Assembly (NCBI RefSeq): GCF_009931435.1
Contig: NZ_CP043414.1
Reading direction: 5' to 3' (one strand)
DNA length: 64,000 nucleotides
Source: Escherichia coli
Lineage (GTDB): Bacteria > Pseudomonadota > Gammaproteobacteria > Enterobacterales > Enterobacteriaceae
Part shown: in pieces, positions 40,172 to 49,449 of the stretch
Position numbering within the stretch: the stretch's first letter is position 1
Layout of the letters: every line of letters starts with the position of its first letter
Notes under the pieces: model-generated
The model's input: only the letters and a program-made list of their open reading frames with translations
What the model was told of the DNA's origin: nothing
Database searches by the model: none
Made by a program: the position numbers and the translations under genes

Positions 40172-41860
40172 ATGGGTAGTGAAAAAAAGGCGAAAGGCTG
40201 GCGGTTCTATGGTCTTGTAGGTTTTGGCGCAATAGTACTGCTTTCCGCTGGTGTCTGGGCATTGCAATATGCTGGTAGTGGGCCAGAAAAAACGTTGTCG
40301 CCGCTGGTGGTACACAACAATCTGCAAATCGATCTCAATGAGCCGGATCTCTTTCTCGACAGCGACTCTCTAAGCCAGCTTCCCAAAGATCTTCTCACTA
40401 TTCCTTTTCTTCACGATGTTCTAAGCGAAGATTTCGTTTTTTATTATCAGAACCATGCCGACCGTCTGGGCATTGAAGGCAGCATTCGCCGCATTGTCTA
40501 CGAACACGATCTCACACTAAAAGATAAGCTCTTTTCGTCACTCTTAGATCAGCCCGCGCAGGCGGCGCTATGGCACGATAAACAAGGCCATCTTTCTCAT
40601 TATATGGTGCTGATCCAGCGAAGTGGTTTAAGCAAGCTGCTGGAGCCATTGCTGTTTGCCGCTACCAGCGACAGCCAGTTAAGTAAAACGGAAATCAGTA
40701 GTATTAAGCTAAATAGTGAAACCATCCCGGTTTATCAGTTGCGCTATAACGGCAATAACACCCTGATGTTCGCAACTTATCAGGACAAGATGCTGGTGTT
40801 TTCCAGCACGGACATGCTGTTTAAAGATGATCAGCAGGATACCGAAGCCACGGCGATCGCAAGTGATTTGTTGAGCGGTAAAAAACGCTGGCAAGCCAGC
40901 TTTGGCCTGGAAGAGCGTACTGCCGAAAAAACGCCAGTACGCCAGCGCATCGTGGTCAGTGCAAATTTGCTGGGTTTTGGCTACCAGCGATTAATGCCTT
41001 CTTTTGCTGGTGTGCGCTTCGAAATGAGCAACGACGGCTGGCACAGTTTTCTGGCGTTAAATGATGAATCCGCAAGCGTAGATGCCAGTTTCGATTTTAC
41101 GCCTGTATGGAACAGTATGCCCGCAGGGGCCAGCTTCTGTGTGGCGGTGCCTTATTCACATGGTATTGCTGAAGAGATGCTTTCCCACATCAGCCAGGAA
41201 AACGACAAGCTCAACGGGGCGTTAGACGGTGCTGCGGGGCTGTGCTGGTATGAAGATTCAAAATTGCAAACCCCGCTGTTTGTCGGTCAGTTTGATGGCT
41301 CAGCCGAACAGGCACAACTGCCTGGAAAACTGTTTACGCAAAATATTGGTGCGCACGAAAGCAAAGCGCCAGAAGGTGTTTTGCCGGTAAACCAGACTCA
41401 GCAGGGCGAAGCGCAAATCTGGCGTCGCGAAGTGAGTTCCCGATACGGCCAGTATCCGAAAGCACAGGCGGCGCAACCAGATCAATTAATGTCGGATTAT
41501 TTTTTCCGCGTGTCGCTGGCGATGCAAAACAAGACGATGCTTTTCTCCCTCGATGACACGCTGGTCAATAACGCGTTGCAAACACTGAATAAAACCCGCC
41601 CGGCAATGGTGGATGTGATACCCACTGAAGGCATTGTTCCGGTCTATATCAATCCACAAGGCGTGGCGAAACTGCTGCGTAACGAAACGCTGACCAGTCT
41701 GCCGAAGAATCTCGAACCGGTTTTTTATAACGCCGCACAAACTTTATTAATGCCGAAGCTGGACGCTTTATCTCAACAACCGCGTTATGTCATGAAGCTG
41801 GCCCAGATGGAACCCGGTGCCGCCTGGCAGTGGCTACCCATTACCTGGCAGCCACTATGA
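40172..41860 (+). CDS. yfaA: uncharacterised conserved protein, first gene of the alpha-2-macroglobulin operon (562 aa)
   Basis: N-terminal TM/signal anchor; ATGA overlap with yfaT; synteny after gyrA. Confidence 0.85.
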
Positions 41861-42480
41861 GGCACGGGCTGCTGGCGCTGATTTGCTGGCTGTGTTGTGT
41901 TGTTGCTCATAGCGAAATGCTGAATGTCGAACAATCGGGGCTGTTTCGCGCCTGGTTTGTGCGTATTGCACAGGAACAGCTTCGCCAGGGGCCAAGTCCG
42001 CGCTGGTATCAGCAGGATTGTGCGGGCCTGGTGCGATTTTCGGCGAACGAGGCGCTGAAAGTTCACGACAGCAAATGGCTAAAAAGTAACGGTATAGCAA
42101 GTCAGTATTTGCCGCCTGAAATGACGCTAACACCTGAACAGCGTCAACTGGCGCAAAACTGGAATCAGGGGAACGGAAAAACCGGCCCCTATGTGACCGC
42201 GATTAATTTGATTCAGTACAACAGCCAATTTATTGGCCAGGACATAAACCAGGCGTTGCCTGGCGATATGATTTTTTTCGATCAGGGCGATGCCCAGCAC
42301 TTAATGGTCTGGATGGGGCGTTACGTCATCTACCACACCGGAAGCGCCACGAAAACTGACAACGGAATGCGCGCAGTCAGTCTGCAACAACTTATGACAT
42401 GGAAGGACACCCGATGGATACCCAACGATTCCAATCCCAATTTCATTGGCATTTATCGTTTAAATTTTCTGGCGCGATAG
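41857..42480 (+). CDS. yfaT: uncharacterised conserved protein (207 aa)
   Basis: Start at the ATG overlapping the yfaA stop (ctATGAgg); signal-peptide-like N-terminus [19 protein letters not shown]. Confidence 0.8.
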
Positions 42481-48668: not shown

Positions 48669-48672
48669 TGCT

Positions 48673-49449
48673 ATGCGAAAGATTTTTTTTCCGTTGTTAC
48701 TGGTGGCGCTTTCGCCTGTCGCTCACAGTGAAGGTGTACAGGAAGTCGAGATTGATGCACCGCTCTCTGGCTGGCATCCTGCGGATGGTGAAGATGCCAG
48801 CTTTTCACAATCGATCAATTACCCCGCGTCGTCCGTCAACATGGCAGATGATCAAAATATCTCAGCGCAGATCCGCGGCAAAATAAAGAATTATGCGGCG
48901 GCGGGTAAAGTTCAGCAGGGCCGGTTGGTGGTCAACGGTGCCAGTATGCCGCAGAGAATTGAATCCGATGGTTCATTTGCACGCCCTTATATTTTCACTG
49001 AAGGCAGCAACAGCGTGCAGGTCATCAGCCCAGATGGGCGAAGTCGACAAAAAATGCAGTTTTACTCAACGCCGGGGGCTGGAGTGATTCGCGCGCGTTT
49101 ACGGCTGGTTCTCTCGTGGGATACGGACAATACCGACCTCGATCTTCATGTTGTCACGCCGGATGGTGAACACGCCTGGTACGGTAACACGGTGCTGAAA
49201 AACAGTGGTGCACTGGATATGGATGTCACGACGGGGTACGGACCGGAGATTTTCGCCATGCCAGCGCCAGTTCACGGGCGCTATCAGGTATATATCAACT
49301 ACTATGGCGGACGCAGTGAAACGGAATTGACGACCGCCCAACTGACGCTGATCACCGATGAAGGATCGGTTAATGAGAAACAGGAAACATTTATTGTACC
49401 GATGCGTAATGCTGGCGAACTGACGCTGGTGAAAAGTTTTGACTGGTGA
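48673..49449 (+). CDS. yfaP: uncharacterised conserved secreted protein (258 aa)
   Basis: Starts 4 nt after the yfaQ stop; signal peptide MRKIFFPLLLVALSPVAHS. Confidence 0.85.
   Translation: MRKIFFPLLLVALSPVAHSEGVQEVEIDAPLSGWHPADGEDASFSQSINYPASSVNMADDQNISAQIRGKIKNYAAAGKVQQGRLVVNGASMPQRIESDGSFARPYIFTEGSNSVQVISPDGRSRQKMQFYSTPGAGVIRARLRLVLSWDTDNTDLDLHVVTPDGEHAWYGNTVLKNSGALDMDVTTGYGPEIFAMPAPVHGRYQVYINYYGGRSETELTTAQLTLITDEGSVNEKQETFIVPMRNAGELTLVKSFDW

Follow-up and report, generated by a model that had tools for sequence, protein, structure and literature searches.

The yfaA-yfaT-yfaS-yfaQ-yfaP operon of Escherichia coli: five intact genes, a thioester-less alpha-2-macroglobulin, and a very probable equivalent of Pseudomonas magBCDEF

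The closest described system to the locus analyzed here is the magABCDEF operon of Pseudomonas aeruginosa (PA4492-PA4487). [quoted passage not shown] MagD, which has no thioester, was shown to trap TEV protease (Zouhir 2018, PMC5764988). In the same work, MagB was found to anchor and stabilize MagD, the processing of MagD was altered by deletion of magC and of magE, neither MagC nor MagE could be assembled with MagD into a stable complex in vitro, and MagE was reported as apparently cytoplasmic (PMC5764988). The protection that magD gives Pseudomonas is specific to VgrG3 and Tae1, two effectors that target peptidoglycan, and does not extend to other effector classes (PMC12663445). The DUF1175 family, represented here by MagC, has been described as peptidoglycan-binding and reported as inactive (PMC10318531). 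The type I macroglobulins, YfhM/ECAM (PDB ID: 4RTD, 4ZIQ, and 5A42) and Salmonella SaA2M (4U48), belong to the same superfamily as YfaS. They, too, belong to the periplasm and have a genetic link to a protein active on peptidoglycan. They are characterized by the GCLEQT motif, a lipobox, and a pbpC neighbor, whereas YfaS has GGVINT, a leader that reads as the signal-peptidase I type, and four accessory genes, and its sequence is only remotely related to theirs.

The window, by which we mean the whole 64,000-nucleotide stretch of E. coli DNA that was analyzed, contains five genes that are transcribed in the same direction and flanked by gyrA and atoB (Table 1). In RefSeq, the nearest genome and MG1655 carry the names yfaA, yfaT, alpha-2-macroglobulin (yfaS), yfaQ, and yfaP at this gyrA-atoB position. 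The first-pass annotation had described five tightly coupled genes on one strand, with an ATGA overlap between yfaA and yfaT, a TAAGTG junction between yfaS and yfaQ, a 4-nt gap between yfaQ and yfaP, and a terminator after yfaP; the ORF list and the junction sequences agree with this description base for base, the ATGA overlap being 4 nt long and the GTG of yfaQ directly following the stop codon of yfaS. The segment downstream of gyrA (40026-40100) folds at -29.8 kcal/mol (z -4.7). The hairpin after yfaP (AAAACGCCCGAT...ATCGGGCGTTTTT) folds at -23.1 kcal/mol on the plus strand (z -4.4) and at -21.2 kcal/mol on the minus strand, with z about -4.3 overall, and as a predicted structure it can serve as a terminator for both yfaP and the convergent atoB. 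A simple terminator scan missed this hairpin, most likely because its loop, as the scanner counts it, exceeds the 8-nt limit. No sigma-70 promoter was found by a consensus scan between the gyrA terminators and yfaA. The sole consensus match of the region lies inside yfaS (45324-45353), and it is not meaningful because matches were fewer than in shuffled sequences (1 versus 8.2). Rfam gave no match to a structured RNA or riboswitch at the gathering threshold in 39900-49700. An anti-phage defense system was also considered and rejected: PADLOC had no match for any of the five proteins.

Table 1. Coordinates of the operon, its flanking hairpins, and selected sites of yfaS in the window.
Feature	Position	Strand	Description
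Tandem hairpins (two) with T-runs after gyrA	40043..40100	+	Upstream boundary of the operon
yfaA	40172..41860	+	ATG 40172 to TGA 41860; 562 aa; DUF2138, MagB orthologue
yfaT	41857..42480	+	ATG 41857 to TAG 42480; 207 aa; DUF1175/MagC, NlpC/P60-like
yfaS	42414..47018	+	ATG 42414 to TAA 47018; 1534 aa; MagD orthologue
yfaS bait-region domain (residues 661-806)	44394..44831	+	Pfam A2M_BRD, E 6e-17
yfaS codons 1068-1073, GGVINT	45615..45632	+	Position of the YfhM/ECAM thioester motif GCLEQT
yfaS codon 1368	46515..46517	+	TGG (Trp) in the window, TGA (stop) in K-12 MG1655
yfaQ	47019..48668	+	GTG 47019 start; 549 aa; MagE orthologue
yfaP	48673..49449	+	ATG 48673 start; 258 aa; DUF2135/YfaP_C, MagF orthologue
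Candidate bidirectional intrinsic terminator, yfaP/convergent atoB	49482..49518	.	14-bp stem between an A-run and a T-run

The Pfam assignments across the operon are DUF2138 (YfaA), DUF1175/MagC (YfaT), MG2, A2M_BRD, A2M, and bMG10 (YfaS), two DUF2300 segments and SpoIID (YfaQ), and DUF2135 (YfaP). NCBIfam returned PRK11410 for YfaA and nothing for YfaT, YfaS, YfaQ, or YfaP, including permissive searches with both halves of YfaQ. The gene order, DUF2138, DUF1175, A2M, DUF2300, and DUF2135, is shared with the mag operon of P. aeruginosa, and the protein identities to the one-to-one orthologues in the P. nitroreducens operon are 47% (YfaA), 70% (YfaT), 55% (YfaS), 53% (YfaQ), and 54% (YfaP). The same five-gene order was found in Pseudomonas, Yersinia, Superficieibacter, and two metagenomic loci. 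The proposed resemblance to magABCDEF thus holds for the order magBCDEF, but not for the first gene: Pseudomonas has an additional magA, a paralogue of magF/yfaP, whereas the E. coli operon consists of five genes, and the stretch ahead of yfaA holds the gyrA terminators and no DUF2135 paralogue. The magA gene is present in L003 (Pseudomonas) and L009 (metagenomic), and absent from the E. coli, Yersinia, and Superficieibacter loci and from L006. YfaP is 54% identical to the protein at the MagF position of Pseudomonas and 41% identical to that at the MagA position. The genomic neighborhoods also differ, and regulation by RsmA/Gac is a feature of Pseudomonas. As in the mag operon, the only membrane helix is that of the DUF2138 protein, and the remaining products carry putative signal peptides. 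The four presumed exported proteins each begin with a basic residue and a hydrophobic segment that is 10 or more residues long, with an AxA-type site (AHS/E, ANA/D, TLA/E, and AHS/E).

The product of yfaS had been described as an uninterrupted alpha-2-macroglobulin family protein of about 1534 aa, and MagD-type proteins had been noted as lacking the CxEQ thioester motif; both statements were confirmed for YfaS. The 1534 codons contain no internal stop, and Pfam identified MG2 (residues 344-440, E 5e-19), A2M_BRD (661-806), A2M (871-953), and bMG10 (about 1416-1517, E 9e-6). The YfaS family profile matches the structures of YfhM, complement C5, CD109, and TEP1. The MG domains, the bait region, and the start of the thioester domain align with the type I structures at E values of 2e-12 to 2e-10. 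In this alignment, G1068-G-V-I-N-T1073 of YfaS is placed on G-C-L-E-Q-T of YfhM (PDB ID: 4RTD, 5A42, and 4ZIQ), and the surrounding family sequence reads ePyGgvvntasrllP against YPYGCLEQTASGLFP in YfhM. C.EQ occurs nowhere in YfaS, and no thioester motif is present in P. aeruginosa MagD. Because GVIN takes the place of CLEQ at the start of the thioester domain, thioester formation is not possible. Mature YfaS has a single cysteine, C1189, whereas MagD has none. Judged by an A2M domain set without CxEQ, YfaS is a type II (thioester-less) bacterial A2M. The bait-region domain is present by its Pfam match, and protease cleavage in it is predicted.

The start codon of yfaS distinguishes the E. coli operon from its relatives. 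The ATG adopted here, with the Shine-Dalgarno sequence GGAAGGA 6 nt ahead of it, lies inside yfaT, 63 nt upstream of the Pseudomonas start position, and gives an overlap of 67 nt versus 4 nt. The ATGA-overlap start of Pseudomonas and Yersinia reads ATAG in E. coli, so that export of YfaS would depend on the upstream ATG and an unusually long leader of 38 residues (MDTQRF...). As read from the sequence, the leader contains a hydrophobic core, an apparent AxA site, and a lipobox-like IAAC string. PGAP places the start at a GTG, which would leave no signal peptide.

Among the other proteins, YfaA is matched by DUF2138 at E 8e-287. According to an AlphaFold (AF2) model (pLDDT 83.6), it consists of an N-terminal membrane helix (residues 11-34), which appears to be uncleaved, and a periplasmic domain. 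Cys323 and Cys358 of YfaA are invariant in 47 homologues. YfaT is matched by DUF1175 (E 2e-58) and weakly by NlpC/P60 (E 0.0026), and it matches the structure of P. aeruginosa MagC (PDB ID: 7BK8) at E 7e-103. The Cys-His-His positions of the NlpC/P60 papain-like fold are present in the YfaT sequence, where D54-C55-x-G57, H148, and H160 are invariant in eight homologues, down to 47% identity. YfaP is matched by DUF2135 at E 6e-17.

YfaQ (MagE) is the least understood component of type II macroglobulin operons. A structural model suggests that it joins an N-terminal domain resembling beta-lactamases and PBPs to a SpoIID-like domain, followed by an HExxH motif near the C terminus. The fold assignment was made from one AlphaFold model, whose input alignment was shallow (23 sequences, none below 52% identity). 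In the model, the N-terminal half appears to have the fold of serine beta-lactamases and PBP transpeptidases: candidate counterparts of the SxxK, SxN/SxV, and KTG active-site motifs are S60-L-W-K63 at the N terminus of the helix 59-72, S108-C-G after it, and K195-T-W on the strand 192-200. The third motif is KTW versus KTG. The spacings are 48 residues from S60 to S108 and 135 from S60 to K195; in OXA-10 they are 48 (S67 to S115) and 138 (S67 to K205). The C-terminal half is predicted to have the SpoIID fold with the position of the presumed catalytic Glu retained, as E334 is aligned to the catalytic Glu of the SpoIID chain 5TXU_A (sequence position 101). YfaQ is likened to the fold of class D beta-lactamases, BlaR1-MecR1 sensors, and PBP transpeptidases, and to SpoIID lytic transglycosylases. 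S60-x-x-K63, S108, K195-T196, E334, and HEYLH (520-524) do not vary among homologues with identities as low as 33%, the divergent MagE sequences being taken from contigs with distant DUF2138 genes. A second homologue search with the YfaQ alignment returned close Pseudomonas relatives and added no diversity. Family searches gave no sequence-level match of YfaQ to beta-lactamase, PBP, or metallopeptidase families. The two DUF2300 segments had no mutual similarity by direct BLASTP, and they are thus not treated as demonstrated repeats. The apparent signal peptide and eight invariant cysteines of YfaQ conflict with the cytoplasmic location reported for MagE; invariant cysteines, two in YfaA and eight in YfaQ, are what would be expected of periplasmic proteins. 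A literature search on DUF2300 gave nothing related, and no described architecture with both folds and a C-terminal HExxH in one chain was found; as a side result, this predicted combination may be new.

Here, we propose that the region is the chromosomal yfaA-yfaT-yfaS-yfaQ-yfaP operon, the enterobacterial equivalent of magBCDEF, and acts as an envelope-defense complex, which we consider highly probable. By analogy with the mag system, the products most likely form an inner-membrane-anchored periplasmic complex that serves as a non-covalent trap for incoming proteases or cell-wall-degrading toxins. YfaS would be exported to the periplasm, where the single-pass membrane protein YfaA (MagB) would hold it at the inner membrane and stabilize it, and YfaS would also bind YfaP (MagF). 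[quoted passage not shown] YfaT (MagC, NlpC/P60-like) would bind peptidoglycan, and YfaQ (MagE), with its modeled beta-lactamase/PBP-like and SpoIID-like domains, may also be directed to the cell wall. The complex would thereby guard the periplasm and the cell wall against foreign hydrolases, including peptidoglycan-targeting type VI effectors. The steps proposed for YfaS, YfaA, YfaP, and YfaT are transferred from experiments on Pseudomonas proteins that are 47-70% identical. Several features are at odds with this explanation: the missing promoter match upstream of yfaA, the lack of the MagA partner, the ATAG and 38-residue leader of yfaS with the PGAP start that removes the signal peptide, and the reported location of MagE.

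The main job of the operon, in place of general protease trapping, could be surveillance or repair of the cell wall or neutralization of peptidoglycan-degrading toxins, with YfaS as a scaffold or trap and YfaT and YfaQ as the active enzymes; the HExxH site of YfaQ might even be the protease that processes YfaS. We regard this as possible but somewhat less likely than not to be the primary role. The specificity of magD protection for VgrG3 and Tae1 (PMC12663445), the invariant motif residues of YfaQ and Cys-His-His positions of YfaT, the change of MagD processing upon deletion of magC and magE, and the pairing of type I macroglobulins with the peptidoglycan enzyme PBP1c are consistent with such a role. 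On the other hand, the fold of YfaQ comes from a single model on 23 similar sequences and has no sequence-level counterpart in the beta-lactamase, PBP, or metallopeptidase families, DUF1175 was reported as inactive (PMC10318531), and MagC and MagE formed no stable complex with MagD in vitro. This explanation and envelope defense overlap in part. An extended version, in which YfaQ/MagE is a three-part cell-wall enzyme (a class-D-beta-lactamase/PBP-like domain whose SxxK...S...KT active site is intact, a SpoIID-like domain for glycan strands with the catalytic Glu, and an invariant C-terminal HExxH metal site) and the operon is a trap-and-repair device, is put forward tentatively from the model, and we would sooner bet against it than for it.

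The state of the operon in E. coli bears on whether it functions at all. The yfaS gene had been noted as a disrupted pseudogene in K-12 MG1655; this is correct (b4500), but the lesion is not the frameshift that had been supposed. The window and K-12 genes align without gaps over 4605 nt, which rules out a frameshift, and in the codon-by-codon comparison with NC_000913.3 the sole lesion is an in-frame nonsense change, TGG to TGA (W1368*), through which the final 167 residues and with them the bMG10 domain are lost. The MG1655 operon (b2225-b2230) otherwise has the same gyrA-atoB locus and the same gene lengths, no indels relative to the window, and 94.5-97% nucleotide identity (97.4% for the YfaS protein). 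Synonymous and non-synonymous codon differences number 71 and 17 in yfaA, 14 and 4 in yfaT, 187 and 40 in yfaS, 46 and 13 in yfaQ, and 30 and 6 in yfaP. None of the five genes is disrupted in the window; they are translationally coupled and have been kept by purifying selection. As synonymous differences far exceed non-synonymous ones in every gene, the cluster is judged from these sequences to be real and conserved rather than a chance pattern. It is very unlikely that the operon has fallen silent or is decaying and has no current function. The K-12 nonsense codon has no obvious laboratory phenotype, truncated yfaS products of 959-1367 aa are recorded in other E. coli (some from assemblies of 42-54 contigs), no consensus promoter precedes yfaA, the ancestral ATG of yfaS has been lost, and in a few genomes the operon is missing wholly or in part. 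Against these observations, coverage of the operon reaches 80% or more in 5178 of the 5426 complete genomes of E. coli, the full-length YfaS protein cluster has 40,950 member sequences, and synonymous changes outnumber non-synonymous ones about 4-5 fold in every gene. The TGA allele occurs in 364 of the 5426 genomes, and all examples among the matches listed are K-12-type or laboratory strains. With TGG at this codon, the 37-mer that was searched occurs in 1413 genomes. An intact yfaS is thus the norm in natural E. coli and not the exception, and K-12 laboratory strains carry the stop.

The reading of yfaS as a thioester-containing, YfhM/ECAM-like type I lipoprotein that binds proteases covalently can be dismissed with near certainty: the shared superfamily, with a family-profile match to the YfhM structures at E 2e-12, and the IAAC string that fits the lipobox pattern speak for it, but CxEQ is missing with GVIN at the aligned site, which rules out a thioester macroglobulin, the neighbors are yfaT and yfaQ and not pbpC, the residues after Cys25 are hydrophobic and lead to an ANA/DD site of the signal-peptidase I type, and a single-sequence search with YfaS reached only complement C5 and CD109, weakly, and not YfhM.

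The operon, its five genes, the absence of the thioester, the relation to mag, and the K-12 pseudogene are already in databases or papers, and its coverage in the complete genomes marks an intact operon as known and ordinary. The statement that it is poorly understood in E. coli holds, as work specific to this species is nearly absent from the searched literature, in which no study of the yfaA-yfaP operon was found. K-12 laboratory strains are natural mutants with a C-terminal truncation of yfaS, so that negative K-12 screens say little about the function of the operon, and a one-base repair of codon 1368 would yield a clean isogenic pair. If YfaQ/MagE is built from peptidoglycan-enzyme folds, type II macroglobulins would be tied to the cell wall, in line with the protection by MagD against peptidoglycan-targeting type VI toxins, and the conserved active-site residues of YfaQ are concrete targets for mutation. 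Should the three-part enzyme proposal be true, both types of bacterial macroglobulin would be firmly coupled to a peptidoglycan enzyme with two functions, PBP1c in type I and MagE in type II, processing of the macroglobulin could be due to the HExxH site of YfaQ, and the operon of E. coli would lend itself well to study, since in K-12 nature has already provided a strain with a truncated yfaS.

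The five ORFs between gyrA and atoB all lie on the + strand (table below). Re-reading the ORF list and the junction sequence showed that the coordinates and junctions in the first-pass annotation were all correct; not mentioned there is a 67-nt overlap of yfaS, read from the ATG at 42414, with yfaT. The single terminator placed after yfaP was also borne out: the hairpin folds with −23.1 and −21.2 kcal/mol on the two strands (z about −4.3), and because folding is good on both, it is a bidirectional terminator common to the yfaP side and atoB. No sigma-70 consensus promoter was found in the 146-nt spacer ahead of yfaA (40026–40171), and the operon region contained no Rfam RNA or PADLOC defence protein.

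Features of the yfaA–yfaP operon and its flanks (window coordinates)
Feature	Position	Strand	Basis or remark
gyrA	37398–40025	+	upstream neighbour; ORF list
two tandem terminator-like hairpins with T-runs	40043–40100		after gyrA; fold computation
yfaA	ATG 40172 to TGA 41860	+	junction reading
yfaT	ATG 41857 to TAG 42480	+	ATGA common to yfaA stop and yfaT start
yfaS	ATG 42414 to TAA 47018	+	open frame; junction reading
thioester-site equivalent, G1068-G-V-I-N-T1073 of YfaS	45615–45632	+	profile alignment
yfaQ	GTG 47019 to 48668	+	directly 3' of yfaS TAA; junction reading
yfaP	ATG 48673 to 49449	+	4 bases past yfaQ stop; junction reading
terminator hairpin	49482–49518	both	14-bp GC-rich stem between A-run and T-run
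atoB	49523–50707	−	convergent downstream neighbour; ORF list

In Pfam searches, YfaA matched DUF2138 (E 8e-287), YfaT DUF1175 (E 2e-58, with a weak NlpC/P60 match), YfaQ two DUF2300 domains and SpoIID (E 1.4e-5 for SpoIID), and YfaP DUF2135. YfaS contains MG2 (residues 344–440), the bait-region domain A2M_BRD (661–806), A2M (871–953), and bMG10 near the C-terminus, in agreement with its proposed membership of the bacterial alpha-2-macroglobulin family. Matching loci in complete genomes are annotated as yfaA (DUF2138), yfaT (DUF1175), alpha-2-macroglobulin family protein, yfaQ, and yfaP. Signal peptides had been claimed for four of the five products, and putative N-terminal export signals were indeed read on four by sequence inspection. 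The predicted membrane helix of YfaA spans residues 11–34, and in homologue alignments both YfaA and YfaQ have cysteine pairs that are invariant.

The gene order between gyrA and atoB is identical in the MG1655 record, where yfaS (b4500) is marked as a pseudogene, as the first-pass annotation had stated; its attribution of the defect to a frameshift did not hold. The window yfaS, uninterrupted as first described, aligned with the MG1655 pseudogene over 4605 nt with zero gaps and 94.9% identity, and translation gave one internal stop in K-12, a TGA at codon 1368, where the window has TGG (46515–46517). Because the alignment is gap-free and this TGA is the only stop, a frameshift is ruled out and the K-12 defect is a nonsense mutation. 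It removes the last 167 residues of YfaS, including the bMG10 domain; apart from this codon, the two proteins differ at 39 positions. The 37-mer with the K-12 TGA at its centre was found in 364 of 5426 genomes, and the carriers among the matches listed were all K-12-type or laboratory strains (for example ER1709, HST04, TG1, MFDpir, and K-12). The TGG version was present in 1413 genomes of animal, human, and environmental origin, and the genomes outside both counts carry other flanking SNPs, as does the window.

The 9.6-kb stretch was matched in 5398 of the 5426 complete E. coli genomes, with at least 80% of it covered in 5178 and always as a single chromosomal copy. Since the K-12 stop is limited to 364 genomes and 40,950 sequences belong to the main cluster of full-length YfaS proteins, intact yfaS is the rule in E. 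coli. The protein database also lists a few shortened YfaS products (959–1367 aa), some on 42–54 contigs, and thus yfaS is sometimes lost in other E. coli lineages; the 959 and 999 aa clusters are those found on 42–54 contigs. Predicted YfaS–YfaQ fusions (1359–1422 aa) with A2M and DUF2300 domains were also among the database matches to yfaS. The short products and fusions may have arisen by repeated pseudogenisation or by loss of the stop codon in TAAGTG. Synonymous/non-synonymous codon differences from K-12 were 71/17 (yfaA), 14/4 (yfaT), 187/40 (yfaS), 46/13 (yfaQ), and 30/6 (yfaP). All five genes are intact, coupled, and under purifying selection, and the operon, already known and present on nearly every E. 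coli chromosome, is an ordinary finding. The window itself seems to represent a sparsely sampled Escherichia lineage. None of the 5426 complete E. coli genomes in RefSeq reached 99% identity over the tested stretches of 12001–49600; the best values were 98.7% over the operon (strain MFDS1022581) and 98.1% over the 25 kb upstream of it, and gyrA is just 97.4% identical to that of K-12.

In the Pseudomonas and Yersinia loci, the magC stop lies within an ATGA whose ATG is the start of the macroglobulin gene, and the leader has a normal length of 25–28 residues. The equivalent four bases are ATAG in the window and in K-12, and the ancestral yfaS start has therefore been lost in E. coli. Upstream of the ATAG, the frame is open, and a GGAAGGA Shine–Dalgarno sequence lies at the right distance before ATG 42414. 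With this start the leader is 38 residues long, and its last 19 residues resemble a signal peptide ending in ANA/DD. The PGAP start in the nearest genome, GTG 42504, has no Shine–Dalgarno sequence and leaves no signal peptide. ATG 42414 is the more likely start, and the choice bears on how efficiently the predicted export of E. coli YfaS proceeds.

The first-pass annotation stated that MagD-type proteins lack the CxEQ thioester, and no C.EQ motif occurs anywhere in YfaS, whose sole cysteine beyond the leader is C1189. A YfaS-family profile (16 proteins, 54–90% identical) matched structures of YfhM/ECAM and of Salmonella A2M, with E-values between 2e-12 and 2e-10, and its segment ePyGgvvntasrllP aligned to YPYGCLEQTASGLFP of these structures. 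With no C.EQ and GGVINT at the aligned site, the thioester domain is recognisable, but the Cys and Glu-Gln of its motif are replaced. A replaced motif defines the type II bacterial macroglobulins (PMC5764988).

The operon had been likened to Pseudomonas magABCDEF. This likeness extends to the magBCDEF order and to protein identities of 47% (YfaA–MagB), 70% (YfaT–MagC), 55% (YfaS–MagD), 53% (YfaQ–MagE), and 54% (YfaP–MagF), but magA is missing in E. coli; YfaP is 41% identical to MagA. The Pseudomonas nitroreducens locus has six genes (YfaP_C, DUF2138, MagC, A2M, DUF2300, and YfaP_C), whereas the Yersinia frederiksenii and Superficieibacter loci have only the last five, and two distant metagenomic operons represent both layouts. 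YfaT is unusually near to Pseudomonas MagC (about 70%) and matched the MagC crystal structure 7BK8 (E 7e-103). Its C55, H148, and H160 occupy the NlpC/P60 Cys-His-His positions, which are invariant across the MagC/YfaT family even though the family is reported inactive; D54-C55, H148, and H160 are invariant in eight MagC-family proteins down to 47% identity. The operon neighbours differ in every genus compared (L003, the P. nitroreducens locus, and L004 and L005, enterobacterial comparison loci), and the E. coli proteins are no closer to Yersinia (51–74% identity) than to Pseudomonas (47–70%). Genus-specific neighbourhoods and near-equal identities suggest horizontal transfer of the whole cassette, which fits the old proposal that such operons move horizontally.

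In Pseudomonas, MagD is periplasmic and inner-membrane associated, in complex with MagA, MagB, and MagF (PMC3735191). Its bait region is cleaved and the protease is kept non-covalently; MagB both anchors and stabilises MagD, mutants in magB or magC lack the 100-kDa processed form, and a magE mutant shows MagD forms of larger size (PMC5764988). DUF1175 proteins have been described as NlpC/P60-like, inactive, and able to bind peptidoglycan (PMC10318531). By analogy, the E. coli proteins would make up a periplasmic trap of this kind, tethered to the membrane and guarding the envelope; the searched literature contains no tests of trap function in E. coli.

The domain make-up of YfaQ/MagE, outside the scope of the first-pass annotation, is the sole item of possible novelty. 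An AlphaFold model (23 homologues, pLDDT 81, pTM 0.66) was searched against solved structures with Foldseek, which gave matches to beta-lactamases of classes A and D, to BlaR1, and to PBP2 (probability 1.0, E about 2e-5; TM-score 0.5–0.6 relative to the target). In the model, the secondary-structure order of residues 24–245 fits the serine beta-lactamase/PBP fold, with S60-L-W-K63 at the N-terminus of helix 59–72, S108 48 residues past S60, and K195-T196 on strand 192–200. The spacing is nearly identical in OXA-10, a class D enzyme (S67, S115, and K205). In the family profile, E334 aligned to Glu-101 (sequence numbering) of the SpoIID chain 5TXU_A, the catalytic residue. A C-terminal HEYLH (520–524) lies on a predicted helix, and D535, E536, and E540 on the next. 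S60xxK63, S108, K195-T196, E334, HEYLH, D535/E536/E540, and eight cysteines are all invariant, including in MagE proteins at 38% and 33% identity; no sequence-level family match was obtained for the beta-lactamase or metallopeptidase reading. The model suggests that YfaQ may combine a beta-lactamase/PBP-like N-terminal domain, a SpoIID-like domain, and the C-terminal HEYLH motif. The searched literature contained no description of this three-part make-up, and the sole paper for "DUF2300" was unrelated. If true, this reading would conflict with the earlier suggestion of a cytoplasmic MagE and would tie type II macroglobulins to a peptidoglycan protein with two activities, just as type I macroglobulins are tied to PBP1c.
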